Positions 4,090-44,748 of a stretch of DNA of 44,748 bases are shown here, piece by piece (the stretch's first letter is position 1; each line of letters opens with the position of its first letter). The stretch lies in UHGV virus genome UHGV-0124463. One strand, written 5' to 3'. The translations under genes and the position numbers were made by a program. The DNA comes from a virus. The notes beneath the pieces are model-generated. The model searched no databases. It was not told where the DNA came from and saw nothing but the letters and a program-made list of their open reading frames with translations.

Positions 4090-7000
4090 ATGGCTCAGTT
4101 TCTGAACCAAGAACCGAATCCACAGGAAAAGGATTCTGCTAAGGGCGCAACACTTAAACCTGCGCCTGAGCGCGTAGATTGGAACGATGCCGGGGACAAC
4201 GGCTTAAATGCACTGGAGCGAGCCTCCTTAATGGCGCAGGCCAAGACCCCAGCTACTACAGCCGGGGAGAGCTTTGCGTCGGGTATGGGCAACAGCATCA
4301 TCGCCGCAGCTATCCGCAAGGCCTCTGCCCCGGCATTTGACCGGGACCAGAACTTTAACGCCAAGCAGACTCTGAGCAGCGACACCCGAGCTAAGCTGTA
4401 TGCTCCAAATCAGGAAGAGATTGAGTACCTGCACGATTCCGTATCGGTCGAGGATTACAACTACCGCATGCAGCAGATGCTTGAGCAACGCGACCGTGAC
4501 CGCTTAATGGCTGACAACACGGTAGCCGGGTTCGCGGGTATGTTGGTGGGTGATTCTCCGTTCATCCTGGCCCCGATGTCTGCCGCTGGTATTGCTGGCC
4601 GCGCAGGCTTAGCTGCACGGACTGCTATCCGCGCTGCTGACGTAGGCTCCGCATTCTATGCGCAGGACCAACTGGGCCAGTCTGCTGCGGTAACTGCACT
4701 GGTAGCGGGCGTAGCTGGGTTGGACCAGCTCTGGGATATGTCTAGGGCTGCTAAAGCTGCTGCTAAGGCTCGTACTGGGCGTGAGCCTATGTTCGACCCA
4801 GAAGCGCCTACAACTCGTACAGCGAGGGACGCTAATGTTACAGGAGTAGGAGAGGGAGAGGAAATCCTTACTAAGACACTGGATGAAAGCATCCAAGTAT
4901 CTAGAAACAATACCGCCTCCGTGAACATGAAAGCACAGCACGTAGTTCAGTTCTTGAAGAAGTCCGAACACTTAACAGCAGGCCAGAAGGCTATTCTGGA
5001 CACGCTGGGCGATGCTGTAAATGACATTGATTTTAAACTGGTAGCAGGCTCCGCAAACCGCAGCCGCTACACTTACGCACAGCAAGATTTAGCTAAGCGT
5101 GGAGAGGTGTCTCTACGCGCACCTAAGCGAGCTAATGGCAGCACATGGACTACAGCAGGGGACGCACTGCGTGCTATGGATGCAGACACAAGCAGGGTAG
5201 CCGTGCACGAACTGATTCATGCCGCCACTGCGCGCGCCGTTGACAGTAACCCAGAGATTGCTAAGCGCCTGGATGAAGTGCGCGCTGTTATTGCAGCGGA
5301 CTCCACCTTGACGCCGCGTATGCGGTATTACGCTAGTAATGTGCACGAGATGCTGGCAGGCTTAGGTGACAGCCCTGAGTGGGTTGAGCATCTGGCGCGG
5401 ACGAAATCCCCAACCGGTAAGAGCATGCTCCGCCAACTGGGCGAGTACATCATGAATGCCCTGGGCATCAAGGCCAAAGGTTCTGCCTTGGAAGATGTCT
5501 TGGATGCGTACGAGGACGCCGTTAAGTGGACAGCTAAGGATTATGCAGACCAAGCCCAGAGCTTCCGTAGTGAAGCCTTCCAGGACCTGGCGGGCAGCAC
5601 TACCCTAAACGAGGCTAAGGGTGCCCAAGCTATGCTGGATGGCGCTAAGAAGAAGCTCTCTACTATGTTTGCCCTGTACGATAACATCGCTCAAGGCAAT
5701 GAAGACTTGGCTAAACTGCTAGTGTCGGATGCGTCCGCAGTAGGCGGCCGTCGCCCGTCTGTAGTGGACTTCAAGCGCAACCTCACTTTGGAGATGGACG
5801 CCAGCGCTAGCGTAGTGGAAGACGCTATCCTGGGCGCGTTGAAGGATAAGGGTGTAGGTTTCTCTGAGCGCTTCTTCCATCGTAGTAAGTTCCGCGCTGA
5901 GCGGGCTGCGCTGGAGGACCGCCTGAGCAAGTACCTGGATGCTGCCTATAGCGCTGACGTAAACGGTAGAGCTGTTCCTGTGCCGGATGCAGAGATTGCC
6001 ACACTGGTTGACGCCTACCGCCGCTCTGGCTGGGCTAGCAAGTGGCACGAGCATATGCTCAATGCCGGGCTAGTGGATGATGGTGCGTTGGTTAAATCCG
6101 ACTACTACTTCCCGCGTCAGTACAGCTACGACAAGATGCGTCAAGGTATCGCACAGGGTAACACTCTGGACGACTACCGCGCCCTGTTCCGGTCCGCCTT
6201 GCGGGACGTTTACCCGAGCATGGAGTCAGAGGTAGTGCAGCGTGTTGCCAAGGAGATGGTTGACGGCATCTACAATGGCCGTGCCGGACAGTCCGGCCCT
6301 ATGTGGAAGCAGCTGATTAACGGTATGGGTAACGATGAGGTCGTTATGGCTATGCGTAGCGCCGGTGTAGAGGAGTCTGCAATCCAGAGCTTCCTGGCTG
6401 GCAACGTACGCGAATCCGGCAGCACATCCCCTGCGCGGAACCTGCGTCAGCGTACTCGGTTCAACATGGACAAAGAGTATCTGGTGAACGGTAAGAGCAT
6501 GCGCATGCAGGACCTGATGGATACTGATGTAGCCAAGGTTATGCACGGGTACACTAACCGTATGTCTGGACGTGTAGGCATGGCCTATGCAGGCGTACAG
6601 GACCTGGGACAGCTCGCTAAGATGATTGATGAGTCCAAGCACGCACTGGCGGATTCCGCTAAGTGGGAGAAGACAATCAATGACACCATCGACTTTATCC
6701 TGGGTGGGGCTCCTGCTGACGCAGGGCAGCTTCCGGATTTGCTACGCGCAGCCGGGAACATGGCTAACGCCACCATGCTTAAGAACTCCGGGCTGTATCA
6801 GCTGACGGATACTGCGCTGGCTATGAAGGAGTTCGGCATGGCTAGAGTGCTGCGCAGTATGCGTGACCAGCCTTGGTTCAAGGAAGGTGCCGTAGCTATC
6901 AAGACTCCGGATATGGCTGCCCGTCTAGACACCGTGCTGCGTGGTAATATCCAGAAGGAGATGCGCTTCCGCTGGCTGAATACGTATGCTGACGATAACT

Positions 7001-9415: not shown

Positions 9416-9717
9416 TGGCAGGGGCGGCTAAACGCAGTCGCCTCTCGGAGCTGCACCGCATGTTCACTGAGGCCTTGATTGAAGAAATCAAGCAGTCCAA
9501 GGAGGACGAGGTGCCGCTCCCCGCCGCAGATAAATCGGTTATCGCTAAGTTCTTGAAGGACAACGACATCACCGCGGACGCAGATTCCGAGGAGATGCAG
9601 GACCTTCGCGACGAGTTCGATGACGAACTAGCGGCGCGTAGAGAGGCGCGTAAGCAAGAGATTCTAAATAAAGTTGGTGGTTCAGACTCTGAGGACTTAC
9701 TAGAAGGAATTGTATAA
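9415..9717 (+). CDS. terminase small subunit (DNA maturase A) candidate
   Basis: 100-aa acidic protein immediately upstream of and overlapping the large terminase gene. Confidence 0.45.
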   Translation: MAGAAKRSRLSELHRMFTEALIEEIKQSKEDEVPLPAADKSVIAKFLKDNDITADADSEEMQDLRDEFDDELAARREARKQEILNKVGGSDSEDLLEGIV

Positions 9718-11573
9718 TGGTATCGGTGAAGACTGCGCGAAGACTGCGCATGCTCAACCAGAAACTTACTGGTTATAGTGCGAATCCGCGCAGTATTCCC
9801 AAAGAGGAGCGCGAGGACATCGCGATGATGATGGCCGCCGCGTTAAGTGACTTCCGGGAATTCGCGTACATCGGTATGCGATTCCTGGGTTTTACGCTGA
9901 CGGACATGCAGGCCGACATTGCAGAGTACATGCAGAAGGGCCCTAGGAAGCGCATGGTGGCTGCGCAGCGTGGTGAGGCTAAGTCTACACTAGCTGCGCT
10001 CTACGCCGTCTGGAGGCTCATACAGGACCAATCCTGCCGCATCCTGATTGTGTCCGGTGCAGAGAAGCAGGCGTCCGACGTTGCGAACCTTATCATCCGT
10101 ATGCTGGAAACCTGGCCGCTGCTGTGCTACTTGAAGGCTGACCCTACTCGTGGGGACCGTACTTCATTCGAAGGCTATGATGTCAACTGCGACCTGAAAC
10201 CGCTGGACAAATCCGCCAGCGTAGCCTGTGTAGGTATCACTGCATCCCTGCAGGGGAAGCGCGCGGACCTGCTGATTCCAGATGATATCGAGACCACCAA
10301 GAACGGTTTAACGCAAACCCAGCGTGAGCAGCTGCTGATGATTTCTAAAGACTTCGCAGCTATCTGTACGCACGGGGATACGCTGTACCTGGGCACACCG
10401 CAGACCAAGGACAGTATCTATAAAACCCTGCCGGGACGTGGCTTCGAGGTCCGCGTATGGCCCGGGCGCATTCCGTCTGTTGAAATGGAAGAGCGATATG
10501 GAAGTACACTTGCTCCTTATATCCTGGAGCTTATTGAGCGCGGCTATAAACGCACCGGCTTCGGCGTCGACGGGACGCTAGGCGAGAGCACGGACACCGG
10601 GCGCTATGACGAGGATGCGCTGATTGAGAAGGAGCTGGACTTTGGTCCAGAAGGCTTCCAGCTGCAGTACATGCTCGACACTACTCTGTCCGACCAGATG
10701 CGTACGCGCATCAAGCTTTCTGATATGCTGGTTTACTCCGGCAGCCAGGATTCCTCCCCGGAGACATTCTCCTACATTGCGGACCGCAGGTACCTGTACC
10801 AGCACGAGCATGAGGGGATTATGGGTCAGCAGATGTACTTCCCGGCATTCTACGGGGACATGCACCTGCCGTACCAGCATAAGGTACTGGTGGTGGACCC
10901 GGCTGGTTGTGGTGGGGACGAAGTGTCCTACGCTGCTGGAGGTGCTGCGAACTCGTACATTCACCTATTCTCCGTAGGCGGATTCCAAGGAGGTATCAGC
11001 GAAGAGAACATTGATAAACTGATTGACCTGTGTGTAGAGTTGGACATCCCGGATATGGTGGTGGAGAGCAATATGGGGCACGGTACCGTGTCTATGCTTA
11101 TCCTGAACCGATTACGTGAGCGGCGTCTCGCCGGTATCGGTGTAAGGGACCTGAATAACTCCACGCAGAAAGAGCGTCGTATCATCGACACAATCAGCCC
11201 AGTTACTCGTCGCCATCGCCTGGTAGTGCATGAGCGTGCTATTCACGACGATATCAGTACCTGTATGGCATATTCCCGCGATAGGCGTTGGCTGTACTCT
11301 GCGTTCGCGCAGTTGTCTGGTATCACGTACGACCGCGGTAGCCTTGCGAAGGATGACCGGGCAGACGCAATCGCCATGATGGTGGCTACGCTGAATGGGC
11401 ATCTGGTGGAAGATGAGAAAGTGGTGGCTGAGCGTGAGTCTGAGAAGATGGCTCGGGCCTTCATTGAGAACCCACTGGATTGGGCACAGAGCAAAGTGTC
11501 TAAGGGCCTTCGTGGTGTAGCTGCTCGGCTACATAACCGGGGCAGAGGTAAACAACATAGAGGAAGAAGATAA
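9717..11573 (+). CDS. terminase large subunit (DNA maturase B)
   Basis: 618 aa; Walker-A-like AAQRGEAKST, ATPase and nuclease acidic motifs; T7 gp19-like size and position. Confidence 0.8.
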   Translation: MVSVKTARRLRMLNQKLTGYSANPRSIPKEEREDIAMMMAAALSDFREFAYIGMRFLGFTLTDMQADIAEYMQKGPRKRMVAAQRGEAKSTLAALYAVWRLIQDQSCRILIVSGAEKQASDVANLIIRMLETWPLLCYLKADPTRGDRTSFEGYDVNCDLKPLDKSASVACVGITASLQGKRADLLIPDDIETTKNGLTQTQREQLLMISKDFAAICTHGDTLYLGTPQTKDSIYKTLPGRGFEVRVWPGRIPSVEMEERYGSTLAPYILELIERGYKRTGFGVDGTLGESTDTGRYDEDALIEKELDFGPEGFQLQYMLDTTLSDQMRTRIKLSDMLVYSGSQDSSPETFSYIADRRYLYQHEHEGIMGQQMYFPAFYGDMHLPYQHKVLVVDPAGCGGDEVSYAAGGAANSYIHLFSVGGFQGGISEENIDKLIDLCVELDIPDMVVESNMGHGTVSMLILNRLRERRLAGIGVRDLNNSTQKERRIIDTISPVTRRHRLVVHERAIHDDISTCMAYSRDRRWLYSAFAQLSGITYDRGSLAKDDRADAIAMMVATLNGHLVEDEKVVAERESEKMARAFIENPLDWAQSKVSKGLRGVAARLHNRGRGKQHRGRR

Positions 11574-12141: not shown

Positions 12142-12545
12142 TGCGTAAACTGGTCGCTGGGTTGCTGCTCGCGGTTACTCTGACTGGTTGCTCGGCGACC
12201 TCTGCACTCACCGGCTTAGTTGGTTCTAAGCCGGATGTATCTGCTCAGGTTGGTGCCGAGAACACCAAACAAACCGTTGGCTTGAATAACAAGGTGGACT
12301 CCAGCACCACCAACAAAACTGATGTACAGGATTCTAACGTAGGCACTTTGGACACGTCCAGTAAGAAGCAGGTGCAAACTATTAGCACCGGGACAATCCA
12401 GGCAGAACGCCTGCAGGTGGTTAACAATGATAGTTACAGTCTTATCCTCGCCGGATTAGCTGGGGCCAGTATTCCTCTGGTCTTCCTAGTGGTCATTCTG
12501 GTGATTCGTAAGCTGTTCAGGAAGAAGGGGCAGCAGGATGATTAA
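12141..12545 (+). CDS. spanin-like lipoprotein with C-terminal transmembrane anchor (unimolecular spanin candidate)
   Basis: N-terminal signal plus lipobox LTGC, Ser/Thr-rich periplasmic region, C-terminal hydrophobic helix followed by RKLFRKK. Confidence 0.5.
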   Translation: MRKLVAGLLLAVTLTGCSATSALTGLVGSKPDVSAQVGAENTKQTVGLNNKVDSSTTNKTDVQDSNVGTLDTSSKKQVQTISTGTIQAERLQVVNNDSYSLILAGLAGASIPLVFLVVILVIRKLFRKKGQQDD

Positions 12546-12789: not shown

Positions 12790-13381
12790 GGTTATTGCGG
12801 CCCTCACGGGGGCCACTATGCTGGGTGGTGCTATTACCGGGGTGGTTCAGCACAACGAGGGATTGAGCCTTACCGCCTATAAGGATAGTGCCGGTGTCCC
12901 TACAATCTGCTACGGGGAGACAAAGGGCGTCAAGATGGGCCAGAGAGCCACGCTGAGCGATTGTCAGAAGCAACTGATAGAATCAGCAGGGGCACATGCA
13001 AAGGCTCTTGACGGGCTTCCTATGCAGCTCTCTGACGTAGCTCTGGTTGGGTCTGTAGACTTCATTTATAACGTAGGCGTAGCTGGCTTCAACGGCAGTG
13101 CTGTGAAGCGGCACCTCAAAAGCCTGAATTACGCAGAAGCTGGAAAGGCCGTACTGGACTGGCGCTATATTAGCAAGTATCAGCAGAAATCCCCGGGCAT
13201 CGGTTGGGTGTACAAGGGCAGCAACCGCTGGACCTTCGACTGCTCTCAGTATATTAACGGGCAGCGCAATAAAGTGTGCTGGGGCCTATGGGAGCGCAGA
13301 CAGTGGCAGAGCAAGGCCATTGGGAATCAGTATAAGAATGTAAATGCTGCAGTGGCAGCTCTTACTAAGACCGGAGGATAA
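12773..13381 (+). CDS. SAR endolysin, T4-lysozyme-type muramidase
   Basis: N-terminal signal-anchor-release-like segment VIAALTGATMLGGAITGVV; catalytic E-8aa-D-5aa-T in NEGLSLTAYKDSAGVPT. Confidence 0.75.
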   Translation: MSLRTKVIAALTGATMLGGAITGVVQHNEGLSLTAYKDSAGVPTICYGETKGVKMGQRATLSDCQKQLIESAGAHAKALDGLPMQLSDVALVGSVDFIYNVGVAGFNGSAVKRHLKSLNYAEAGKAVLDWRYISKYQQKSPGIGWVYKGSNRWTFDCSQYINGQRNKVCWGLWERRQWQSKAIGNQYKNVNAAVAALTKTGG

Positions 13382-15895: not shown

Positions 15896-16425
15896 AACCA
15901 AAAATTATTATACTCGCCCTTGGGCCTCCCTCACCCTCAGCGCGAGCAATTGCCCCCATAGGGGGTGCCTAGCGCATAAACAGAGGGGGTGGGGCCACCT
16001 AGGGCGCACTAGTAGGCACCAGCGGGCCTCAGCGGGCCTGTGCTGCGTTCTAGTGCTATCGCTAGTGCTACCCTATGGCTATCCCTGTGCGTTCACTAGG
16101 GCGCTTCCTGTGCGCTCTCTGTGGGCCATAGGGGTGCGCTCTGCCTTACCTATTTTGTGCGCCTCAGTGTGGCACCTAGGGGCGTGTCCATTGCTTATTT
16201 TGCGCGTCCATAGTGGGCCCGCCTAGTGCGCTGTAGTGCGTCACGGTGCTATCCCTAGTATGCACTAGGCGATCCACTGGCTATCCCTAGTGCTTTACAT
16301 TGTGCCGATTATATGCTACGCTGCGCGCTCCCCCCTAGGGCGCACATCCTCACCCAACACTATCCCGGCGCTATCTCTTTGCTATCCTTTTGCTCTTACT
16401 TTCATTCGAAAGCTGTCATGAAATG
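15896..16425. repeat. repeat-rich non-coding region (short direct repeats and recurring 10-mer CTAGGGCGCA); probable genome-terminus region
   Basis: No credible ORF; CTAGGGCGCA at 15999 and 16335 (9/10 at 16096; also 17330), tandem cagcgggcct x2, repeated ctagtgcta and ctatccct. Confidence 0.5.
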
Positions 16426-16442
16426 ATGTTACAGGAGTAGGA
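16426..16442 (+). promoter_or_regulatory. copy of 17-bp motif ATGTTACAGGAGTAGGA (candidate phage RNAP promoter)
   Basis: Exact match to copies at 4834..4851 and 37985..38002; in non-coding DNA. Confidence 0.4.
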
Positions 16443-16633: not shown

Positions 16634-17020
16634 GTGGCTAGAACATTTAAGATTGTGGTTGATAAGGAAGGTTATCCAGTGATTAATGGTGCTGGGCCTG
16701 AGTATGTGAATAAGCGAGGTAAGAGAGACTATAAGACTGTGGCGCTGCATAGGGCCGTGGTTATGGATGCTCTGGGAATCACTAGCTACGGTTCTGGCTA
16801 TCACGTACATCACTGTGACAGTAACCGCCTTAACTGTGACTTCAATAACCTGATACTGGTTAGCGCTGACACTCACCGGGCCATACACTTAGCACAGATT
16901 CAGGAAGGGAGATGCTTCACAAAGGATGAGTTATTGGCTAGTCCTGAGTACGATACTAACTGGCGAGAGTTCTACGTGACTTATGGGGACTACAATAGTT
17001 TACTGCACGCAGACCTTTAG
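16634..17020 (+). CDS. HNH endonuclease
   Basis: GTG start after RBS TAAGGAGA; motif HVHHCDSNRLNCDFNNLILVSADTHRAIH. Confidence 0.6.
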   Translation: MARTFKIVVDKEGYPVINGAGPEYVNKRGKRDYKTVALHRAVVMDALGITSYGSGYHVHHCDSNRLNCDFNNLILVSADTHRAIHLAQIQEGRCFTKDELLASPEYDTNWREFYVTYGDYNSLLHADL

Positions 17021-17848: not shown

Positions 17849-17919
17849 TTACAGCCTATAGCATCCTACGGGGTGCTATGTGAAGTAATTACCTAAACAA
17901 CCAATCAAAGAGGTGCATT

Positions 17920-21234: not shown

Positions 21235-22289
21235 TGTTCTTGAATCCGCACGGGATTGATATGCAGCTGCTCTTGCAGATACTGCAAACGCACCGGCCTA
21301 GCTGGGGTAGCACTAAGTGGTTCGAGCCGCTGCTTATGCAGTCGCTACAGGCACTTGGTAGCGGTGTGCACTACGTAAAGGATAAGCACGGGAACTACTT
21401 CGTGCTGGTGGGAGACTCAGAGCAAAGCGACGTAGCGTTTACATCGCACCTCGATACGGTGGCCCGTCCTGGTAGTGCAGCCCCGGACGTTGGTTGCACT
21501 AACAAGGGCATACTGTTCGTAAAGAATCCGCAACAAGCTGACTGCTTGGGGGCGGACTGCGGTGCTGGTATCTACCTGATGCTGGAGATGCTGCGGCGGG
21601 GTGTGCACGGACGCTACTGCTTCTTCGTGGATGAAGAGGTGGGCTGCGAAGGCAGCGCTGCATCGGTCAAGGATGACACTGGATTTTGGACTGGTGTCAA
21701 GGCGATGATTAGCTTTGACCGCCGCGGAGATGGTATCATTACGCACCAGCGGTACATGCGCTGCTGCTCTGATACCTTTGCCAAGACTCTGGCAGAGCGC
21801 CTAGGACGCACGGAGCAGCACTTACAAAAGGGTGTGTATACTGACTCAGCCGAGTTCGTCGGCATCATCCCTGAGTGCACCAACGTCGGTGTAGGGTACA
21901 TGCACGAGCACACTCCGGATGAGGTACTGGACCTGAACATCCTGGGGCAAGTGCTTGAGCGGGTACTGCAAGATGGTACGTTCTCGCACCTTCCGATTGA
22001 GCGGGACCCGAAGGTAGTAGAGACGGACCAATGGCTCTCTACATCTACTCTGAGTTTCCGGCAGCCGTGGGACATGCCCCCGGACGAGGACCCGCAATTG
22101 CTGGCTGCGTTCCGTGTAGTGTCACAGCTTTCTAAACAGCAACTGATTAGCTGGGTGCAGGAGAATCCAGAGAAGGCGGCGGAGTACATCATGGTGTTCT
22201 CCGATTATGGCTTCAAAGAGGAGCTGATTGAACTAGGCACCCGAGTCGTAGAAGACTGGGGCGGATACGATAATATTGTGGAGGGTTGA
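21234..22289 (+). CDS. metallopeptidase candidate (M20/M28-like zinc hydrolase motif set)
   Basis: Ordered motifs HLDTV, GADCGAG, DEEVGCEGS, and a later HEH; 351 aa. Confidence 0.4.
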   Translation: MFLNPHGIDMQLLLQILQTHRPSWGSTKWFEPLLMQSLQALGSGVHYVKDKHGNYFVLVGDSEQSDVAFTSHLDTVARPGSAAPDVGCTNKGILFVKNPQQADCLGADCGAGIYLMLEMLRRGVHGRYCFFVDEEVGCEGSAASVKDDTGFWTGVKAMISFDRRGDGIITHQRYMRCCSDTFAKTLAERLGRTEQHLQKGVYTDSAEFVGIIPECTNVGVGYMHEHTPDEVLDLNILGQVLERVLQDGTFSHLPIERDPKVVETDQWLSTSTLSFRQPWDMPPDEDPQLLAAFRVVSQLSKQQLISWVQENPEKAAEYIMVFSDYGFKEELIELGTRVVEDWGGYDNIVEG

Positions 22290-28996: not shown

Positions 28997-29065
28997 TCTG
29001 GCTTGATTCTGTGATTCCCAGCAAATTAATGTGATACGAGTAGGAACAACACAAGAGAGGCAACC

Positions 29066-30109
29066 TTGGCCAAAGTAAGTCTAATAAAACTATTCACCAA
29101 AGAGCAGCACCAGGCAATCCTGGGCCAGTACTTGGATAACTCGACGGCTGCTAAAGCATATAACGTACTACTGGCTTACGGGGAGATACCGCAGTACAAG
29201 GAGAGTGCAGAATACTATGGCACCCTTGGTACCGCAGAGTGCGTGGTGTCTCGCCAGCTTGTACGCTACTGGCGCAGCATCTTCATGGATAACAAGGGCA
29301 GCAAGGCCAGCGCCAACCGCGGGCTGCAGGAAGCGCGCAAGCTAATCCAACCGAGCCCGACGGACGACATCGGGAATACACTGGTGCCGGATATGTGTCA
29401 CCGCATCCTGGTGGTTGGGGACTTGCACGCCCCATATACCCATGTAGACGCTATGCCGTTCCTTGAGAGTGTACGTGACGCCTACTGCCCGGACATGGTG
29501 GTGCAGGTAGGTGACGAAACCGACGGACACGCAATCAGCTTCCATGACTCTGACCCGAACCTAGATAGCGCCGGGGTGGAGCTGGAGAAAGCCAAGCTCG
29601 TACTGGAGGAGCTGCATGAACTATTCCCGAACCTACTGGTTTGCGATTCCAATCACGGCAGTCTGGTTTACCGCAGGGCGAAAGCTCACGGGCTACCAGT
29701 GCAATTCATCAAGAAGTACCGAGATATACTTTTCCCTGAGCATGGTGCCCCGGCGTGGTCTTGGGCTGACGCATGGGTACTCAATACCCCACTTGGCCAG
29801 GTTAGATTCCAGCATCAAGTGTCGGGCGATTTCATGCTCAATGCCAGCCACGAAAGAACCAGCCTTGTACTTGGCCACGAACATGGCCGCTTTGAGGTGC
29901 AATATGCAGCTAGCTCAACAGCTCTGTACTTTGGTGCGTACGCTGGGTGTCTGATTGACCGCAAGAGCATGGCCTTTGCTTACGGCAGGCTCACTCGCAA
30001 GAAACCAATCCTGGGTGTGATGGTAATCACCGAGGGTTGCCCGCAGTTAATTCCAATGCTGCTTGATGATTCCGGAAGGTGGTGTGCAAGAGATAAAACC
30101 AAAGACTGA
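29066..30109 (+). CDS. calcineurin-like metallophosphoesterase (phosphatase or Mre11/SbcD-like nuclease fold)
   Basis: Motifs VVGDLHAPY, VQVGDETDGH, CDSNHGS, LGHEHG in canonical order; TTG start after RBS AGAGAGG. Confidence 0.55.
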   Translation: MAKVSLIKLFTKEQHQAILGQYLDNSTAAKAYNVLLAYGEIPQYKESAEYYGTLGTAECVVSRQLVRYWRSIFMDNKGSKASANRGLQEARKLIQPSPTDDIGNTLVPDMCHRILVVGDLHAPYTHVDAMPFLESVRDAYCPDMVVQVGDETDGHAISFHDSDPNLDSAGVELEKAKLVLEELHELFPNLLVCDSNHGSLVYRRAKAHGLPVQFIKKYRDILFPEHGAPAWSWADAWVLNTPLGQVRFQHQVSGDFMLNASHERTSLVLGHEHGRFEVQYAASSTALYFGAYAGCLIDRKSMAFAYGRLTRKKPILGVMVITEGCPQLIPMLLDDSGRWCARDKTKD

Positions 30110-32879: not shown

Positions 32880-33847
32880 TGATTATCAACGGGGTTGACT
32901 TGTCCCAGCTCGGGGAGCAGTTAGCTCCGCAGAACTCTGGGAAGATTCTGTTGTACGATGCGGATTTCACAGTTTATAAATCTGCCGCTACAGTGAAACG
33001 TTTGGATACCGCGATACGCCGCTTCTATCAGCTGGTGCTTGAGGACATGTTCCTGGTCGGCTGCTCAGAAGCAGTGGCGTATCTTACACCGACTGGGTGC
33101 GCTAAGTGCCTGCGCTGGCACTTGCCCACCGCTAAGCCCTACCAGGGGCAGCGGGCTAATCGGCAGGAGCTTCCGCTGAAAGCGCCTTTGAAGCGGCACC
33201 TGATTGAGAACCCGGACCAGTATTCTGAGCAGGGGATACAGGTGGTTAGCAGCAACTTCTTCGAGGCGGACGACATGTTCATCATGGACTCATACGCCTT
33301 CGGGGACCGTGGCATCCTAATGTCCCAGGATAAAGATTCCTGGCTCAGCCCTATGGCTCGGTTCGATATCCCGACCGGAACCGTGTGGCCTGCCTTGGAT
33401 AACCCCTTCGGCTGGATTAAGTGGGATGATACCCAGGCTATGCCGGTACGAGCGCACGGCTTAAAGTTCTTCTGGTGGCAGATGCTAGCAGGGGATGACG
33501 CAGACAACGTCAAAGGCATCACATTGCTTGATGGGAAGCTCTGTGGGAAGAGAACGGCCTTTGATGCTATCAACCCTATTACCTCAGAGCAGGACGCCGC
33601 AGAATTCGTTGTGGCGGCTTACGCTCGAAACAACCAAGATGTACTCGCAGAGGCAGAATGCCTGTTCCTGCGGCGCTCCCCGTCAGATTCAGCGTACCTG
33701 TATCTGATGTCACTGTTGACTACTCCCAGTCTACGTGACTGGGTGCATTCGCTGCACGAGTACCATAAACAGCACATACAGTGGATACAGGAGCACCCAG
33801 ACAATGGCGAAGATGACTGCAAAGGAAATGAGCCTGCGGGCGATTGA
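32879..33847 (+). CDS. 5'-3' exonuclease (T7 gp6-like, FEN family)
   Basis: N-terminal GKILLYDADFTVYKSAA resembles T7 gp6 GILVMDGDWLVFQAMSAA; acidic clusters; 322 aa. Confidence 0.6.
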   Translation: MIINGVDLSQLGEQLAPQNSGKILLYDADFTVYKSAATVKRLDTAIRRFYQLVLEDMFLVGCSEAVAYLTPTGCAKCLRWHLPTAKPYQGQRANRQELPLKAPLKRHLIENPDQYSEQGIQVVSSNFFEADDMFIMDSYAFGDRGILMSQDKDSWLSPMARFDIPTGTVWPALDNPFGWIKWDDTQAMPVRAHGLKFFWWQMLAGDDADNVKGITLLDGKLCGKRTAFDAINPITSEQDAAEFVVAAYARNNQDVLAEAECLFLRRSPSDSAYLYLMSLLTTPSLRDWVHSLHEYHKQHIQWIQEHPDNGEDDCKGNEPAGD

Positions 33848-35510: not shown

Positions 35511-37976
35511 TTGACAATGCTAACCTATGTACAGAACCCAGAAGCAGAGTTAGTACAGCGCCAGCTGGAGCTCGAAGAGACCTATAAGATTCGCGGAATC
35601 GAGCGGGCACGTAAGCTGATTACGGACGCATTGCAGAACGGTGGGATTATGAACCTGCCGATGACGCAGCGTATGCTCACCTCAGCATACGAGGTGGCTG
35701 CTGCTGCTATCGATGAGATGCGAAATGTCAAAGCCCCAGGCATTGGCGGCAAGTATCGCCGGTTCCTGCGCTTAATCCCCTTGGATGTCCTGACCACCCT
35801 GAGCCTGTGCACAATGTTTGAGGCGTTCAGCGTCGCCCCAGGTGAGTCCGCCAGTCGCCGCCAGACTGCACAAGCAGTAATGTCCGCATTGGGTAGGAAC
35901 GTGCAGTCAGAGCTACTGGCTCTGCAGTTACGTAACGTAGCCCCTGCGTACATGGACCGTGTGTACGAGTACCTCACTGAGCGCCGTACGAAGTCCCCTT
36001 CGCACATCCTGCGTACGCTCCGTGCCAGTGCCGAGAACGTGCACTATGGGCACGAGCCTTGGACCAATGCCCAGAACATCTCCGTAGGGCGTCTGCTGTG
36101 TGCCGCGGTGTTTGAGACGGGCCTGTTCCAGTGGAAGACAGGTAGCGGGAACCTGAGCATGCTCTACCCAGCTGATGACGTTATGGAGGCCTTCCAGAAA
36201 CTGGTGGAATCTGCCGACACTGTAACGATGAAGCCGCCTATGCTGGTCCCCCCGGTGCAGCACACCACTATGTGGGGTGGTGGGTACCTTACTCCTATCG
36301 ACAACCGCGGTACTTACCATAACTCGCACATCGACCGAGCCAGGCTGCGTGAAGTAGCGGAAGCATTTAAGTCCGCGGACGGCATCAAGAAGGCGCTTAA
36401 TAAGGCACAGGAAACCCCGTACCGTATTAATAAGCGCATACTGGAACTGGTGCAAGAAGCACGGGCCATGGGTATTGGGGTGGGTATGCCCCGCTCAGTT
36501 CCGGAGCCCAAGCCAGAGTGGTATCTGGACGGGGTGCCGAAAGAGAACTACACCGAAGAAGAACTGGACCGCTTCGGTGAGTGGAAGACGCGTATGTCCC
36601 TATGGTACAGCGCAGACCGTAAGCGCGTGTCTCAACTACGTAGCCTGTTGACCACGCTGGAAATGGCGGAGGAATTCAAAGATGAGAAAGCTCTGTACTT
36701 CCCAACCTGTGTGGATTGGCGGTACCGGTTGTACTTCAAGTCCTCGCTGCACCCTCAAGGTTCTGATTTGCAGAAAGCCCTTCTTGAGTTTGGTAGAGGA
36801 AAACCTCTGGGTGATCGCGGCTTATTCTGGCTCAAGGTGCATGTCGCCACATGCTTTGGTTATGACAAGACCCTATTCGAAGACCGCGCAGCTTGGGTTG
36901 ATGCGAACTTTGCAGAGATTGAGCAGCTTACAGTTTCACCGTTTGATTGCCCTGCTTTCACCTCCGCGGACAGCCCTTGGTGCCTGCTGGCCGCCGCTAT
37001 CGACTTGGTTAATGCGGTTCGTTCTGGATGCCCAGAAGAGCATATTAGCCGAATCCCAGTTGCTATGGACGCTACAAACTCAGGTGGACAGCATCTCTCA
37101 GCGCTCCTGAGAGACCCTGTGGGCGGACGCTTGACGAACCTGTACTGGGAGGGTAATGATAAGAAAGCGGACCTGTACATGGACGTGAAGCGCCGTACGG
37201 ACGAGAAGGTGATACTGGACCTGGACAAGGAGGATTTCGTTATCCAGAGCACGTACTGGAGAGAGAACGAAATCACCCGCAGCATGACCAAGCGCCCTAG
37301 TATGACCTACTTCTACAGCGCCACTGTGCGCAGCTGCAGCGACTACATCTTCGAAGGCGCTTGCGCTGAGGGGTACGAGGGTACTGAGACTAACAGTCTG
37401 TGGAACTTGTCATGCTACCTGGCTCCGCGTATGCGCACTGCTATCGAGGAGGCAAACCCAGCCGCAGCCGCAGTTATGGGGTACTTGCAGAACCTCGCTA
37501 GGCGTGTACCGGCAAGCCAGCATCTGCAGTGGTATACGCCGCTGGGTGGGCTCGTAATGAACCGCTACACGCAGCGTGAAGAAGTGCGCGTACGTATTGA
37601 CTGCATGAACCTGTCAGCGGTACTGGTACACAACCGGGACTTCAAAACTTGCAACAAGCGCAAGGCAGCCTCCGGGATTGCCCCGAACTTTGTGCATAGC
37701 CTGGACAGTACGCACTTGATGATGGTGCTCTGTGCTGCGGAGGGGTTGGACATTGTGCCTATTCACGACTCGCTGGCTACTCACGCAGCTGACGTTGACG
37801 CTATGCATAGGCACATCCGTGAGCAGTTTGTGCGCCTGTATGAAGAGAATGACCTGCTTGGCGACATTACTCGCGCGGCAGCAGCAGCCGGGGCAGACTT
37901 GACGGACCTGGACATGCCGGAAGTGGGCACTTTGGACATCCGGCAAGTGCTAGAATCCCCGTTCTTCTTCTGCTAA
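35511..37976 (+). CDS. single-subunit DNA-dependent RNA polymerase (T7 RNAP family)
   Basis: 821 aa; blocks matching T7 RNAP: FPTCVDWRYRLY, DATNSGGQHLSALLRD, ASGIAPNFVHSLDSTH, IHDSLATH, C-terminal LESPFFFC. Confidence 0.9.
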   Translation: MTMLTYVQNPEAELVQRQLELEETYKIRGIERARKLITDALQNGGIMNLPMTQRMLTSAYEVAAAAIDEMRNVKAPGIGGKYRRFLRLIPLDVLTTLSLCTMFEAFSVAPGESASRRQTAQAVMSALGRNVQSELLALQLRNVAPAYMDRVYEYLTERRTKSPSHILRTLRASAENVHYGHEPWTNAQNISVGRLLCAAVFETGLFQWKTGSGNLSMLYPADDVMEAFQKLVESADTVTMKPPMLVPPVQHTTMWGGGYLTPIDNRGTYHNSHIDRARLREVAEAFKSADGIKKALNKAQETPYRINKRILELVQEARAMGIGVGMPRSVPEPKPEWYLDGVPKENYTEEELDRFGEWKTRMSLWYSADRKRVSQLRSLLTTLEMAEEFKDEKALYFPTCVDWRYRLYFKSSLHPQGSDLQKALLEFGRGKPLGDRGLFWLKVHVATCFGYDKTLFEDRAAWVDANFAEIEQLTVSPFDCPAFTSADSPWCLLAAAIDLVNAVRSGCPEEHISRIPVAMDATNSGGQHLSALLRDPVGGRLTNLYWEGNDKKADLYMDVKRRTDEKVILDLDKEDFVIQSTYWRENEITRSMTKRPSMTYFYSATVRSCSDYIFEGACAEGYEGTETNSLWNLSCYLAPRMRTAIEEANPAAAAVMGYLQNLARRVPASQHLQWYTPLGGLVMNRYTQREEVRVRIDCMNLSAVLVHNRDFKTCNKRKAASGIAPNFVHSLDSTHLMMVLCAAEGLDIVPIHDSLATHAADVDAMHRHIREQFVRLYEENDLLGDITRAAAAAGADLTDLDMPEVGTLDIRQVLESPFFFC

Positions 37977-37984
37977 AAAATTTA

Positions 37985-38002
37985 ATGTTACAGGAGTAGG
38001 AA
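37985..38002 (+). promoter_or_regulatory. copy of motif AATGTTACAGGAGTAGGA directly downstream of the RNAP gene (candidate phage RNAP promoter; also overlaps the RBS of the next gene)
   Basis: Exact match to copies at 4834 and 16426; the ATG of 38002..38442 follows immediately. Confidence 0.4.
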
Positions 38003-38714: not shown

Positions 38715-40310
38715 TTGGAACAAAAAGCAACATTAGCAGAACTCTTTAAGAAGGACCAGGACGCAGGTGTATTGGATGCCTCCGAGAAGTTCGCGCAGTG
38801 GACGCTCAGCACTATCTTTACCCGGGACGATTCCCTGGACGGTAGACGCAGACCGCTAGAGCGTGACTACCAGAGCACCGGCGCGCAGCTGGTCAACACT
38901 GCAGCCACTAAGATTGTAGGGGCACTGTTCCCTCAGGGCACTAGCTTCTTCCGGTTCTCCAAGAGTTCGGACCTGGACGAGTTCATTAGTTCTCTGGGCA
39001 GTGCAGCTACAGCAGAATCTAAGCTGGCTGAGGTAGAGAACACAGCGTCACAGAAAGTATTTGAGAAAGACGGTTATGCTGCGAAGTTGCAAGCTGTGAA
39101 GCTGCTGCTGGTTACAGGTAACGCGTTGGAGTATATTGATGAGAGGACAGGTAAATCCATCGTCTACTCAGTCCGTAACTTTACCGTTCGAAGGGATGGC
39201 AGCGGGAACGTCCTGCGACTCATTATCAGAGAGCGCGCAAGCGTCCAGGACCTGCCAGAAGATTTCCGCGGCACATTCTACCGTGACAAAGACCCATACG
39301 GCGACGTTGATATCTACACTGCCGCTTGTCGCAAGGTTAAGCGGACAGAGGACGGTGCAGAGGTAGTAAGCTACGAGGTGTACCAAGAAGCAGACGGGCA
39401 CCGCATCGGAGACAGTAGCACCTATCCGGAGCTGGAGCTTCCCTACAACGTGCTGGTGTGGAACCTTGTTAGCGGTGAGCATTACGGTCGCGGCTTGGTA
39501 GAGGACTACGCCGGGGACTTTGCTCGGTTGTCGGTACTATCGGAAGCATTAACTAACTACGAGGTTGAGTCTGCGCGGCTAATCCCGCTGATTGACGCAA
39601 GCTCTGGGTTAGACGTGGACGAGTTCTCAACGTCGGAGACTGGTGAGGCTGTGCAGGTGGGTGGTGGTGGTTCCAACGGGAACAGCAAATCCCCCGTCAC
39701 TGCTTACGAGGGTGGCTCTGCCCAGAAGATTCAGTGGATTGCCAGCAACATTCAGATGCTCGAACAGAAACTATCTCGTGCGTTTATGTACACCGGTAAC
39801 TCCCGGCAGGGTGAGCGTGTCACGGCTTACGAGATTCGCCAGAATGCCAAAGAGGCGGAAGCCGCTATGGGTGGTGGGTTCAGTATCCTGAGCGACACAT
39901 GGCTGCGTAAGCTGGCGTACCTGTACACTGCGCTGGTGTACCCTCGCTTTAAGCTGTACCTCAGTGAAGGCGTGGTGAATATCAACGTTACTGTGGGCAC
40001 CTCTGCACTCGCTAAAGCCGCGGCAGCGGACAAGCTGTTAGAGGCGGCACAGTCCATGCAGCTGGCTATCCCGGTGCTTGAGCAGATTACTCCGCGCTTC
40101 AACAAGGATGCGTGTGTAGACTGGTACTTCGACGCCTACGGTATCGTCAGCGAGCCGTTCATGTACACCGAAGAGCAGCTGCAGCAGAAGCAACAGGTTC
40201 AGGATGCATCTGCCGATACGTCAGCAGGTCTAGCGCAGGACCAACTCCAGGGCTTGACAGCAGCGGACCCAACAGTAGCAGGTAAGCAGCTGGGCTTATT
40301 ACCAAGTTAA
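38715..40310 (+). CDS. portal (head-tail connector) protein
   Basis: 531 aa, T7 gp8-like size and position upstream of scaffold and capsid; TTG start after GGGGG RBS. Confidence 0.65.
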   Translation: MEQKATLAELFKKDQDAGVLDASEKFAQWTLSTIFTRDDSLDGRRRPLERDYQSTGAQLVNTAATKIVGALFPQGTSFFRFSKSSDLDEFISSLGSAATAESKLAEVENTASQKVFEKDGYAAKLQAVKLLLVTGNALEYIDERTGKSIVYSVRNFTVRRDGSGNVLRLIIRERASVQDLPEDFRGTFYRDKDPYGDVDIYTAACRKVKRTEDGAEVVSYEVYQEADGHRIGDSSTYPELELPYNVLVWNLVSGEHYGRGLVEDYAGDFARLSVLSEALTNYEVESARLIPLIDASSGLDVDEFSTSETGEAVQVGGGGSNGNSKSPVTAYEGGSAQKIQWIASNIQMLEQKLSRAFMYTGNSRQGERVTAYEIRQNAKEAEAAMGGGFSILSDTWLRKLAYLYTALVYPRFKLYLSEGVVNINVTVGTSALAKAAAADKLLEAAQSMQLAIPVLEQITPRFNKDACVDWYFDAYGIVSEPFMYTEEQLQQKQQVQDASADTSAGLAQDQLQGLTAADPTVAGKQLGLLPS

Positions 40311-40324
40311 CAACAGAGGCATAG

Positions 40325-41167
40325 ATGGATAACGTAGAAAACGGTCAAAACGTAGAAACTACACAGGTAGAGAACCAGGGTGGCCCTAAGATTCCGGGCC
40401 TAGGTGCTCCCCTTAACGCCCCGAACAATCAAGGCGTGCAGGATGCACAGACCACTACCCAGCAGCAACAGGGCAAAGATTCCCCTGACCCTGCTAAGAT
40501 TCCTCTGGATATCGAAGCCTTAAAAGCGGCCCTGGATAAGGGTGGCGATAGCGCTAAAGAGCAGCCCCAGGAGCTAGCTAAGACAGGCAATCCGACGATT
40601 GACGCCGGGGTAGCCATGTTGCAGAAAGTCTCTGGGTTAACTGACTCTGATATGGTGCGGGCACTTGGCAAGGCCCTGGAGTATCAGGACCCTAACCTAA
40701 TCGATACGGCCTTCATTAAGGAACGTTTCGGAGAGCACGCTGCTTATGCAGAGTTGCTGGCTAAAGCGTATCTGGAAGACCAGGTTGGTCAAGCCACCAA
40801 AGCAGTACAGGAAGCTTACGATATCGTGGGCGGCAAGGAGAACTGGGAGGTAGCAGCGCAGCTGTTTAATTCCAAGGCCCCTGAACCTCTGCGTAACGCA
40901 GCTCGTGTACTCGCTAACTCGGGTGAGCTTAAGCAGGCCGCTGAGTTGGTGGCGAGCTTCTGCCGGGATATGGGTCTTATCAAGACACAGAACCCAATGG
41001 TACGCGGCGTAGCCAGCAACAATGCACTATCTGCTGCGGAATTCCGCGCAGAATATACCAAACTCCGTCAGGAAGCGGGCAACCGTAGCTTGGCGTCTCC
41101 ACAGTTCAGTAAACGTTATAACGATTTGCTCGCACGCCGCGAAGCTGGTAAGCGCGTAGGTCTTTAA
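40325..41167 (+). CDS. capsid assembly scaffolding protein
   Basis: 280 aa, acidic helical protein between portal and major capsid genes. Confidence 0.55.
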   Translation: MDNVENGQNVETTQVENQGGPKIPGLGAPLNAPNNQGVQDAQTTTQQQQGKDSPDPAKIPLDIEALKAALDKGGDSAKEQPQELAKTGNPTIDAGVAMLQKVSGLTDSDMVRALGKALEYQDPNLIDTAFIKERFGEHAAYAELLAKAYLEDQVGQATKAVQEAYDIVGGKENWEVAAQLFNSKAPEPLRNAARVLANSGELKQAAELVASFCRDMGLIKTQNPMVRGVASNNALSAAEFRAEYTKLRQEAGNRSLASPQFSKRYNDLLARREAGKRVGL

Positions 41168-41192: not shown

Positions 41193-42212
41193 ATGGCAGA
41201 TACTATCTATAAAAGCGCCCTGACCCGAGCCCATTGGGGCGGCGCGGCATCTGATGTAGACATTCACCTGGAAGTGTATCAGAATGAAGTAGACACCCGC
41301 TTCCAGTACCAGGCTCTGTTCCTGGGCCTATCCAGCCAGCGCTCTATCAGCGGTTCCAACACCTACCGTATTGACCGCCTGAACACCTCTTCGGTGAAGG
41401 GTCGTCGCTCCGGTGAGGCGCTGGATAGCACTCCGGTCCGTAACGATAAGATGATTATCGTGGTGGATACGGTGCTGTATATCCGTAACCCGATTGACTA
41501 CCAGGATGACTGGACCGGTCCGGACTTCCTGACTGAGATGGGCCAGAACAACGGCTCGGAGTTCGCGGAGACCTTCGACCAGGCGCACCTGATTCAGCTC
41601 ATCAAAGGCCGTTCCTGGGTTGCCCCGGCGCACCTGAAACCGGCGTTCAACGACGGTATCGAGGTAGGTGCGGCTATCCTTGTTCCGGGTACCGCCACCG
41701 CCACGCAGCTGACCCAGGCTGAGATGGAGGCTAACGCCATGAACATCAACCTGGCCCACAAGGCTGGTATTGATGAACTCATCAAGCGCAAGACCCCGCT
41801 GGCGGACATGATTACCCTGGTGGATGTCGATACCTATTCGCGTCTGCTGGAGCATCCGAAGCTCCTGAACCTGGACTTCGGTGCGTCCAACAACGACGGT
41901 TACAAAGACCGTCGTGTAGTGAAGATGAACGGCGTGCCTGTAGTAGAGTGCACCGAGTTCCCGACCTCGGCTGGTACGCACCCTCTGGGCTCTGCTTACA
42001 CCGTCACCGCTGACGACGCGCTGTGCCGTATGGTGACTTTCAGCAAGTCCAAGACCCTGGTGACTGTTGAAGCTAAGCCGTTCACCTCCCGTATCTGGGA
42101 TGATGAGCGCGAGTTCAGCAACGTTCTGGACTGCTACGCGATGTACAACATCGGCCTGCGTCGTCCGGACACCGCTGCAGTGACTAAGTTCACCTTCACC
42201 ACCAAGTCCTAA
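41193..42212 (+). CDS. major capsid protein
   Basis: 339 aa, T7 gp10A-like size; strong RBS AAAGGAAAAG; followed by a strong terminator as in T7. Confidence 0.7.
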   Translation: MADTIYKSALTRAHWGGAASDVDIHLEVYQNEVDTRFQYQALFLGLSSQRSISGSNTYRIDRLNTSSVKGRRSGEALDSTPVRNDKMIIVVDTVLYIRNPIDYQDDWTGPDFLTEMGQNNGSEFAETFDQAHLIQLIKGRSWVAPAHLKPAFNDGIEVGAAILVPGTATATQLTQAEMEANAMNINLAHKAGIDELIKRKTPLADMITLVDVDTYSRLLEHPKLLNLDFGASNNDGYKDRRVVKMNGVPVVECTEFPTSAGTHPLGSAYTVTADDALCRMVTFSKSKTLVTVEAKPFTSRIWDDEREFSNVLDCYAMYNIGLRRPDTAAVTKFTFTTKS

Positions 42213-42411: not shown

Positions 42412-42447
42412 GCCCCTGGTGCCTTCGGGTGCCGGGGGCTTTTTTTT
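42412..42447 (+). terminator. rho-independent terminator (12-bp stem with UUCG tetraloop, then T8)
   Basis: gcccctggtgcc-ttcg-ggtgccgggggc followed by tttttttt, read directly. Confidence 0.8.
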
Positions 42448-43062: not shown

Positions 43063-44748
43063 ATGGCGCAATCATTAGAAGGTACTATTCAGAGCTTGCT
43101 GCAGGGCGTTTCCCAGCAGGTTCCGAGAGAGCGCCAACCAGGACAACTGGGGGCGCAGCTGAACATGCTCAGCGACCCGGTTTCCGGTATCCGCCGCAGA
43201 CCCCCGGGTGAGATTGTCTGGGAAAGCACGATTGATAATCCAGGGCTTGATTCCCTGTTCACTGAATACGTAGAGCGTGGAACTGACGGCAGGCACCTGC
43301 TGATTAACACCAGCAACGGTAACTGGTGGTTACTGGCTAAGAATGGAAAGACCATCCTTAACTCCGGAAACGACCCGTACTTTATTACCACCGTGGGTCA
43401 GACCTCTTTGCAGACCGCGAGTATTGCTGGACTGACTTATATCCTGAATACGGAGATGGCCCCGAACACAACCGTGGACAATACGGGGCGTATTGACCCA
43501 GGCACCACTGGGTTCTTCTACGTTAAATCTGCAGCATTCCAGAAACGCTGGAACGTCACTGTTACATCTGCCGGGGTAGATTACTCCGGGGACTACACCG
43601 CCCCAGCTGCTGGCAGTACCAGTGGTAACGCTGAGGAGGTATCAGGTGCCTACGTTGCTCAGCAGCTGCGAGACTCTCTTGTAGCGAATGGATTGCCAGC
43701 TGGGAACGTTAGCGTACGCGGCGCATACTTGTTCTTCTATGGGTTGAGCAACTGTGTGGTATCCTCCGACGCTGGCGATACTTATGCTGGGGTATCCAAC
43801 CAGTCTCGTGTAGACCAGGAGCAGGACCTACCTGCACAGCTCCCAGCGCAAGCTGACGGGGCGATGTGTCGTGTAGGTACAGCCTCGTCTGAGACAGCGT
43901 GGTACCAGTTCAGCTACAGCACCCGCACCTGGTCTGAGGTGGGAGCGTACGGCAGCATCACCAAGATTACGAACATGCCCCGAGAGCTTGCTGCAGATGA
44001 CAACATTATTGCGCGGGATTGGGAGGGGCGTTTAGCTGGTAACGACGACAATAACAGCGACCCCGGATTCGTGGAGAATGGATACATCACCGGCATTGCA
44101 GCTTTCCAGGGCCGCTTGGTTCTGCTTAGTGGTAGCTCCGTGGATATGTCTGCCTCAGGTCTGTACCAGCGCTTCTACCGCTCCACTGTGACGTCTCTGC
44201 TGGATACGGACCGTATCAGCATTAGCTCTGCGTCTGCACAGGATTCTGTGTATCGTACCGCTGTGCAGTTCAACCGGGACTTGGTCCTGTTTGCTAACAG
44301 CATGCAGGCGGTTGTGCCGGGTTCAGCGGTACTCACCCCCACTAACGCAAGTATTAGCATCACCAGCACCTACGAGTGTGATAGCCGTGTGACTCCGGTA
44401 ATGGCGGGGCAGACGGTAATCTACCCGAATAAGCGCAACAACAGCTACGCGGGTATACTGGAGCTAATCCCATCACCATATACTGCGGCGCAGTACACTA
44501 CGCAGGACGCCACGGTGCACCTGCCGCGGTACATTCCCGGCAGGGTATTGCAGATGCAAAACTCCAGTGTCACCAATATGGCCTTCTCACGAATGTCCGG
44601 AGAGCGAAATAACCTGCTGGTCTATGAGTTTATGTGGGGTGGGAGTGATGGTGCTAAGATGCAAGCGTCGTGGCATAAATGGACGTTCCCATATCCAATC
44701 CTGAGCGTGCAGGCGCTGGAGGATGAGGTGTTCTTGTATATGCAAGGG
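43063..44748 (+). CDS. tail tubular protein B (T7 gp12-like), 5' portion; continues at window start
   Basis: ATG 43063 after AAGGAGAGG; frame stays open to the last base and continues in frame into 32..748 via the 54-bp repeat. Confidence 0.7.
   Translation, partial: MAQSLEGTIQSLLQGVSQQVPRERQPGQLGAQLNMLSDPVSGIRRRPPGEIVWESTIDNPGLDSLFTEYVERGTDGRHLLINTSNGNWWLLAKNGKTILNSGNDPYFITTVGQTSLQTASIAGLTYILNTEMAPNTTVDNTGRIDPGTTGFFYVKSAAFQKRWNVTVTSAGVDYSGDYTAPAAGSTSGNAEEVSGAYVAQQLRDSLVANGLPAGNVSVRGAYLFFYGLSNCVVSSDAGDTYAGVSNQSRVDQEQDLPAQLPAQADGAMCRVGTASSETAWYQFSYSTRTWSEVGAYGSITKITNMPRELAADDNIIARDWEGRLAGNDDNNSDPGFVENGYITGIAAFQGRLVLLSGSSVDMSASGLYQRFYRSTVTSLLDTDRISISSASAQDSVYRTAVQFNRDLVLFANSMQAVVPGSAVLTPTNASISITSTYECDSRVTPVMAGQTVIYPNKRNNSYAGILELIPSPYTAAQYTTQDATVHLPRYIPGRVLQMQNSSVTNMAFSRMSGERNNLLVYEFMWGGSDGAKMQASWHKWTFPYPILSVQALEDEVFLYMQG

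Follow-up and report, generated by a model that had tools for sequence, protein, structure and literature searches.

The thrice-repeated motif of a Klebsiella Drulisvirus genome is very probably the KP34-type strong promoter of the phage-encoded RNA polymerase

Introduction

The promoter read by the RNA polymerase (RNAP) of phage KP34 was defined by Lu et al. (2019, Front Microbiol 10:2487, PMC6834552), who used in vitro transcription and 5'-RACE and described 5'-T(A/G)ATGTTACAGGAGTA-3' as the KP34 strong promoter. On a template carrying the RNAP gene plus the downstream gap, purified KP34 RNAP started mostly at KP34 nt 22213 (PMC6834552). The 16-mer TAATGTTACAGGAGTA (S1) lies at KP34 22197-22212, just 5' of this start, and again at 33721-33736, and the 16-mer TGATGTTACAGGAGTA (S2) lies at KP34 475-490 (PMC6834552). 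KP34 RNAP alone initiated on the bare 16-mer in vitro; both 16-mers were about equally efficient in KP34, and the 14-mer common to them was much weaker (PMC6834552). According to these authors, KP34 carries three strong sites and one weak site only, the weak promoter, W, being regarded as a 'relic', and a 32-mer 'phage promoter' predicted with MEME (Eriksson et al. 2015) was inactive with KP34 RNAP (PMC6834552). It should be noted that the KP34 evidence is in vitro only and consists of run-off transcription and of 5'-RACE performed with products made in vitro (PMC6834552). More recently, PhageProm (NAR 2025, PMC11880802) mined 467 KP34-like promoters in 135 genomes, with a protein-DNA co-variation analysis limited to T7-like RNAPs. 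The promoter is therefore already known: its biochemical definition dates from 2019 and its mining across genomes from 2025.

A second described system is that of LUZ19 and Phikmvvirus, whose phage-specific promoters read 5'-GgtTATGTCACacACAnnGG-3' (Putzeys et al. 2024, PMC10914365). Their placement in LUZ19 was obtained by mapping start sites in vivo, and the authors noted its agreement with KP34 (PMC10914365). For genomes of this layout, expression of the early and middle genes by the host RNAP first is the established logic (PMC6834552, PMC10914365).

Here we analyse a stretch of 44,748 nucleotides of viral DNA (UHGV virus genome UHGV-0124463), called the window throughout and taken at its full length. 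A preliminary description of this DNA had proposed that a 17-bp motif present three times is a promoter for the RNAP encoded by the phage. We report how this motif compares with the KP34 promoter, how it is conserved among relatives and how it varies together with the RNAP.

Results

On its sequence, the window is placed among the KP34-like Klebsiella podoviruses of the genus Drulisvirus (Autographiviridae/Slopekvirinae); its RNAP region shares 93-97% DNA identity with some 250 Klebsiella phage records of this genus. It is a circular permutation in which KP34 nt 1 aligns to about 15928. The physical gene order runs from the left end at about 15928 through the early and DNA-metabolism genes to the RNAP gene (35511-37976) and then to the structural, packaging and lysis block, which wraps through the window ends to about 15900. 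All long open reading frames (ORFs) lie on the + strand, and the three promoter copies are co-directional with the genes (Table 1). The RNAP of the window matched T7 RNAP structures with an E value of 2.8e-67 (HMMER). The terminator past the capsid block has a predicted fold of -25.8 kcal/mol (z = -3.05), and a terminator is annotated at the same place in KP34 and SU552A. As to the assembly itself, positions 20-73 exactly repeat the final 54 bases (44695-44748), as in a circularised assembly with a terminal overlap and a unique length of about 44675 bp; the first 19 bases differ from the sequence preceding the overlap at the other end, and the gene of tail tubular protein B appears to span the junction of the window ends.

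Table 1. Positions of the promoter copies, related sites and genes in the window
Feature	Position	Strand	Remarks
Internal core protein gene (gp48 homologue, internal virion protein), 1232 aa	4090-7788	+	
Strong promoter copy S1, in the core-protein gene	4833-4848	+	Exact match; orthologous to KP34 33721-33736 in gp48
Tail fibre	7790-9415	+	Name transferred from KP34 annotation
Terminase	9415-11573	+	Name transferred from KP34 annotation
Tail protein, 651 aa	13382-15337	+	Name transferred from KP34 annotation
Strong promoter copy S2 TGATGTTACAGGAGTA, non-coding	16424-16439	+	Exact match; orthologous to KP34 475-490
HNH endonuclease ORF	16634-17020	+	Pfam HNH_3, E 1.5e-07
Variant site TAATGTGATACGAGTA, then GGAAC	29027-29042	+	13/16 match to strong promoter plus GGA
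Single-subunit (T7-type) RNAP gene	35511-37976	+	801/821 residues identical to KP34 RNAP (98%)
Codons for RNAP residues 702-705 (S-A-V-L)	37614-37625	+	Co-vary with promoter -7
Orthologue of KP34 weak promoter W ACTTTGGACATCCGGCAAGT, 1 mismatch	37929-37948	+	Within 3' end of RNAP gene
Strong promoter copy S1 TAATGTTACAGGAGTA	37983-37998	+	Exact match; orthologous to KP34 22197-22212
gp38 homologue, first gene 3' of the post-RNAP promoter, 146 aa	38002-38442	+	No Pfam match
Portal	38715-40310	+	Name transferred from KP34 annotation
Scaffold	40325-41167	+	Name transferred from KP34 annotation
Capsid	41193-42212	+	Name transferred from KP34 annotation
Intrinsic terminator past the capsid block	42412-42439	+	12-bp stem, then T8

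The 17-mer ATGTTACAGGAGTAGGA has exactly three exact matches in the window, at 4835-4851, 16426-16442 and 37985-38001, all on the + strand. The three identical copies of the preliminary description were thus recovered, two of its ranges (4834..4851 and 37985..38002) being one base too long each. None of 100 dinucleotide-preserving shuffles equalled the observed count of matches within 3 mismatches (shuffle mean 0.12). An independent, unsupervised repeat search returned the same motif family together with a fourth copy at 29027-29045 (84% identity) and, apart from the assembly overlap at the window ends, no further multi-copy motif of such length. Beyond the 17-mer, the copies share two more 5' bases, to give TAATG at 4833 and 37983 and TGATG at 16424, and, as regards sequence context, GGA stands directly 3' of all three copies with a G at +1 right after ...GAGTA. 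Aligned in this way with the KP34 promoter, the functional unit would be the 16-mer (-16 to -1) at 4833-4848, 16424-16439 and 37983-37998. The 17-mer of the preliminary description is out of register, as it lacks two 5' bases and its trailing GGA corresponds to +1 to +3.

The KP34 record was checked and the three strong sites were confirmed: one follows the RNAP gene, one lies within gp48 and one comes just beyond the left terminal repeat. Both phages carry two TAATG copies and one TGATG copy, identical in sequence, at three orthologous positions; in both, the promoter is followed by GGA, and the RNAPs are 98% identical. The ORF coordinates and the KP34 alignment bear out the placements given earlier, one copy lying in the core-protein gene, one in non-coding terminal DNA and one right after the RNAP gene. 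Transferred from the KP34 5'-RACE, transcription in the window phage would start at G4849, G16440 and G37999. In KP34 the start is at 22213 and the gp38 ATG at 22216, and in the window the predicted start is at 37999 and the ATG at 38002, i.e. the same 3-nt distance. The window differs in nothing of substance from KP34 and represents another isolate of one genus; 3' of the left-end copy, where KP34 differs, it has the HNH endonuclease ORF.

Given an RNAP 98% identical to that of KP34 and three orthologous copies of the KP34 strong promoter, we conclude that the proposal of a promoter for the phage-encoded RNAP was correct, and that the checks suggested along with it had already been carried out on the near-identical phage KP34. 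The motif is almost certainly the KP34-type strong promoter read by the phage's own T7-type single-subunit RNAP. All the sequence-level attributes of this promoter were found in the window, namely the 16-mer, the cognate RNAP, the positions and orientation of the copies, the G at +1 and, as described below, co-evolution with a loop of the RNAP. Initiation by the RNAP at these sites has been observed biochemically for KP34 in vitro and, by transfer, would be expected for the window phage.

The motif was compared with the promoters of LUZ19 and T7. LUZ19 shares with the window the genome layout and the sparse promoters, which lie just 3' of the RNAP gene, in the structural region and close to the early end. 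The LUZ19 and KP34-type motifs have a common ATGT(T/C)AC core but otherwise a different consensus; moreover, in LUZ19 the RNAP gene is followed by two copies, the copy at the early end is antisense and the RNAP is only about 33% identical to that of the window. Like the T7 class III promoter (TAATACGACTCACTATA followed by GGGAGA), the KP34-type promoter is a compact duplex with a TAAT start, a TA end and initiation at GG, but it comprises 16 upstream bases versus 17 in T7 and its central recognition block is unrelated. There are 3-4 promoters per genome here versus 18 in T7 (T7 count from PMC11880802), and the RNAP gene closes the middle region in the window but lies in the early region in T7. 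The motif does not match the 23-bp T7/T3-type consensus TAATACGACTCACTATAGGGAGA, with which it shares only the 5' TAAT and, at the start, TA followed by GG. From these sequence features, the KP34-type promoter would work like a T7 promoter while lying outside the T7 consensus group.

To follow the motif across the genus, relatives (IMG/VR contigs) were fetched without the motif, by means of the RNAP C-terminus, the gp23 homologue, a gp48 fragment and the conserved flank 5' of the left-end copy; loci fetched through flanks were joined by contig, and conserved blocks were profiled by motif-anchored ungapped profiles. Upstream of the gp23 homologue, an additional gene is inserted in some genomes. 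A promoter-like 16-mer was present at each recovered position in all Drulisvirus genomes examined. Positional conservation in related phages, one of the checks proposed in the preliminary description, was thereby observed, all three sites being orthologous in KP34 and dozens of Drulisvirus contigs, and the three positions were conserved although their flanks are only 70-80% identical. In distant RNAP relatives (about 60% identity; loci L181 and L182), nothing closer than 5-6 mismatches was found 3' of the RNAP gene, and the motif therefore appears to be specific to the Drulisvirus cluster of 93-98.5% RNAP identity.

Position 10 of the 16-mer (-7) divides these genomes into two types. It was A at every recovered copy in 32 of the 66 genomes and C at every recovered copy in 34, none being mixed (0/66); this association may trace to a single evolutionary event, so that the 66 genomes cannot be counted as so many independent observations. 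The A form, ...TTACAGGAGTA, is found in the window and KP34, and the C form reads ...T(T/A)ACCGGAGTA; the ending of class A is also written ...ACAGGAGTA, versus ...ACCGGAGTA for class C. In the complete genome of SU552A (NC_028870), the three copies, at 443, 20955 and 32481, are of the C type. Alleles of the gp23 homologue (about 88, 83 and 71% identical to the window in nucleotides) occur in both the A and C types, and so do alleles of gp48 (about 93, 87 and 82%). Since these unlinked alleles are found in both types, the three sites, spread over 44 kb, are completely linked in mosaic genomes, and the types are not two clonal clades.

The RNAP, the sole protein scanned, was then searched column by column over residues 173-821 and 1-250, i.e. 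over the whole of 1-821. The only columns disjoint between the A and C types were 702 (S/T), 703 (A/I) and 705 (L/R), and column 704 (V/M) was nearly so. The loop of type A reads N-L-S-A-V-L-V-H and that of type C reads N-L-T-I-M-R-V-H; the window has SAVL, like KP34, and SU552A has T-I-M-R. In an HMMER alignment, residues 702-705 of the window pair with T7 RNAP 758-761, in the specificity loop, and R693, R695, N700 and S702 pair with T7 R746, N748, R756 and Q758, the gap placement across the loop hairpin in this alignment being uncertain by about 3 residues. For this reason, the assignment of residues to bases is inferred. An Arg together with a template-strand G at -7 resembles the contacts made by T7 through R746 and R756, and Arg705 of class C would recognise the G that arises on the template strand at -7. 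From these sequences, the dimorphism of -7 and the loop looks like a natural specificity switch.

This co-variation bears on whether the motif might be the binding site of some other phage or host protein (of the replication-origin, packaging or repressor type) and not of the RNAP. In favour of such a site, one copy lies near the genome end, beside a second highly conserved block at 16396, and end-proximal promoters of T7 are also linked to replication. Against it, the co-varying positions were found only in the RNAP loop (in a scan confined to the RNAP), and the placement right after the RNAP gene fits the logic of T7, SP6 and LUZ19. In addition, initiation on the bare 16-mer in vitro requires no protein other than the KP34 RNAP (PMC6834552). 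We consider it very unlikely that the motif serves another protein in place of the RNAP.

The copy that follows the RNAP gene raises a second alternative, namely that the motif is mainly a translation signal, a strong Shine-Dalgarno sequence (GGAG ... GGA) reused before genes. This copy (37983-37998) lies 7 nt past the RNAP stop codon, the ATG of the next gene being at 38002, and the promoter adjoined the gp38 homologue in 60/60 unbiased Drulisvirus loci. The sequence GGAG at 37993-37996 corresponds to -6 to -3 of the promoter, 5' of the predicted start at 37999 and 5 nt before the ATG at 38002, an arrangement that is conserved in all relatives and that speaks for a translation signal. However, such spacing, like that of a ribosome-binding site, is true at 38002 alone among the three copies; no start codon follows the copies at 4833 and 16424, of which one lies in frame within the gene at 4090-7788 and one is non-coding. 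GGAG was thus not found 5-9 nt before a start codon in the mRNA at every copy. By analogy with the mapped KP34 start, the promoter-initiated RNA of the gp38 homologue would begin GGA-AUG, with a 3-nt leader devoid of a Shine-Dalgarno sequence and hence of GGAG. Furthermore, a ribosome-binding site would not be expected to co-vary with a loop of the RNAP. As GGAG lies 5' of the start point, a Shine-Dalgarno role could therefore be played on read-through transcripts only. The suggestion that the motif doubles as a ribosome-binding site at 38002 is accordingly retained as a possibility for read-through transcripts and set aside for RNA initiated at the promoter, from which GGAG is absent judging by the KP34-mapped start. 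GGAG belongs to the promoter consensus and does not account for the repeat, and a translation signal as the explanation of the repeat is effectively refuted.

The spacing between start and ATG at the gp38 homologue was conserved in every relative examined. In some relatives (loci L134, L136, L137, L139 and others), an insert of about 350-480 bp separates the RNAP stop codon from the promoter; in NTUH-K2044-K1-1 (L001 20851-21327), the insert is annotated as an HNH endonuclease gene. The promoter stays directly before the gp38 ATG despite these inserts, and the two therefore behave as a unit.

The copy within gp48 encodes (A)NVTGV. Its sole common change is ACA to ACC or the reverse, both coding for Thr, a synonymous change that is the A/C switch of the promoter. 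The other fourfold-degenerate third positions of this copy were invariant in 36 distinct sequences and nearby ones vary, with the caveat that neighbouring stretches are also invariant; this synonymous-site invariance is moderately strong evidence and suggests that selection acts on the DNA and not on the protein. That the repeat arose by chance or was inherited neutrally without function has nothing but the short length of the motif to recommend it, and it is already refuted by the conservation of three orthologous positions amid flanks of 70-80% identity and by the concerted change of the three copies, in addition to the shuffles, 0/100 of which reached the observed count.

The left-end copy lies about 497 nt (about 0.5 kb) from the physical left end. 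Beside it, at 16396-16414, stands a second conserved non-coding element, TTACTTTCATTCGAAAGCT, which ends 9 nt 5' of the promoter and has exact matches in 51 IMG/VR stretches. From about 16560 on, alignment to KP34 is lost, which, with the HNH ORF at 16634-17020, suggests an inserted homing endonuclease.

The variant site at 29027 is intergenic, in the DNA-metabolism region, 23 nt 5' of the ORF 29066-30109. It is identical in KP34 (12983-12998) and SU552A (12375-12392), and was exact in all but one recovered Drulisvirus genome (the exception reading TGATG...), in both promoter types. It is part of a sharply bounded conserved block, TTAATGTGATACGAGTAGGAACAACA, 5' of which come about 10 variable bases and, before them, a second conserved AT-rich block containing TTGACT; the site keeps its AAGAGAG, which resembles a ribosome-binding site, also in genomes with a different downstream gene. 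The four promoters reported for KP34 do not include it. Its mismatches, at -10, -8 and -6, fall in the presumed footprint of the specificity loop, and it does not switch with the -7 A/C types; both features count against a simple reading as a fourth strong promoter. This site could be a phage promoter of a weak, class II-like kind, could belong to a host promoter or could be an element of a 5'-UTR. With regard to a host promoter, a weak TTGATT-N18-TAATGT arrangement is possible by eye at 29003-29032; consensus scans for host sigma-70 promoters gave no site at 4833, 16424, 29027 or 37983, with counts not above those of shuffles. As a candidate phage promoter, the site is possible but rather doubtful.

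The orthologue of the weak promoter W showed 15 variants in 58 loci, nearly all of them synonymous within the peptide GTLDIRQV, and matched exactly in KP34 only. It appears to evolve like ordinary coding sequence, and owing to this free drift at synonymous sites, a relic or an in vitro side activity fits better than a maintained promoter.

Several other candidates were rejected. The MEME-predicted 32-mer has a single copy in the window, at 17853-17884 with 2 mismatches, and none other within 3. A 3-mismatch match, TTATGTCACAGGACTA at 7650-7665, has no KP34 counterpart and was treated as chance, as were the TGATGTTACAGGAGTA-GGTACTGC matches of a degenerate IMG/VR scan, which lie in conserved coding context of unrelated contigs. 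Lastly, TAATGTTACA(C/G)GAGTA followed by GGAA was found in isolate-genome contigs of about 46-53 kb (L015, L038, L046, L061, L064 and L080). These contigs share the context of the motif and have no protein homology to the window, and in L064 the motif lies between minus-strand genes; the match was judged coincidental, in an unrelated prophage family.

Discussion

The position of the RNAP gene at the end of the DNA-metabolism block implies that the host RNA polymerase must express it first. For the subsequent steps, we infer the use of each copy in vivo, the extents of the transcription units and the contacts between residues and bases in the window phage largely from KP34 and T7. By analogy with T7, the phage RNAP would bind the 16-bp duplex T(A/G)ATGTTACAGGAGTA (-16 to -1), the hairpin of the specificity loop reading roughly -11 to -7 and the DNA being opened at the junction of TA and GG. 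RNA would then start at the following G, at 37999, 4849 and 16440. The post-RNAP copy would drive gp38, gp39, portal, scaffold and capsid as far as the terminator at 42412-42439, which may bound or attenuate the unit starting at 37999. About 7 kb beyond that terminator on the genome map, the copy inside gp48 would re-boost the distal late genes, i.e. tail fibre, terminase, the lysis cassette and the tailspike. The left-end copy, close to the genome end, would face the early region, whose first ORF is the HNH endonuclease; it could re-transcribe early genes, aid genome entry or prime replication, as discussed for end-proximal T7 promoters. In terms of use, these assignments would allow the genome to be annotated with three phage-RNAP promoters, predicted starts and late transcription units.

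Two leads, the dimorphism of -7 A/C with SAVL/TIMR and the invariant variant site TAATGTGATACGAGTA at 29027, were not found in the searchable literature, the site lists of PhageProm lying outside this search. Class A (the window, KP34 and NTUH-K2044-K1-1), with the loop NLSAVLVH, may read ...TTACAGGAGTA, and class C (e.g. SU552A), with the loop NLTIMRVH, may read ...T(T/A)ACCGGAGTA. That Drulisvirus holds two such natural RNAP-promoter specificity classes, plus the site at 29027 as a weaker, class II-like promoter usable by both, is a plausible reading that we would place a little short of probable. The two classes would form a naturally evolved, possibly orthogonal RNAP-promoter pair, completely linked across mosaic genomes, and the swap of four loop residues from SAVL to TIMR, tied to a single base change at -7, may matter for the engineering of single-subunit RNAPs. 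As a promoter upstream of the genes for DNA metabolism and of the RNAP gene, the site at 29027 could give positive feedback, and it could illustrate how expression is graded in a phage that has only 3-4 promoters.
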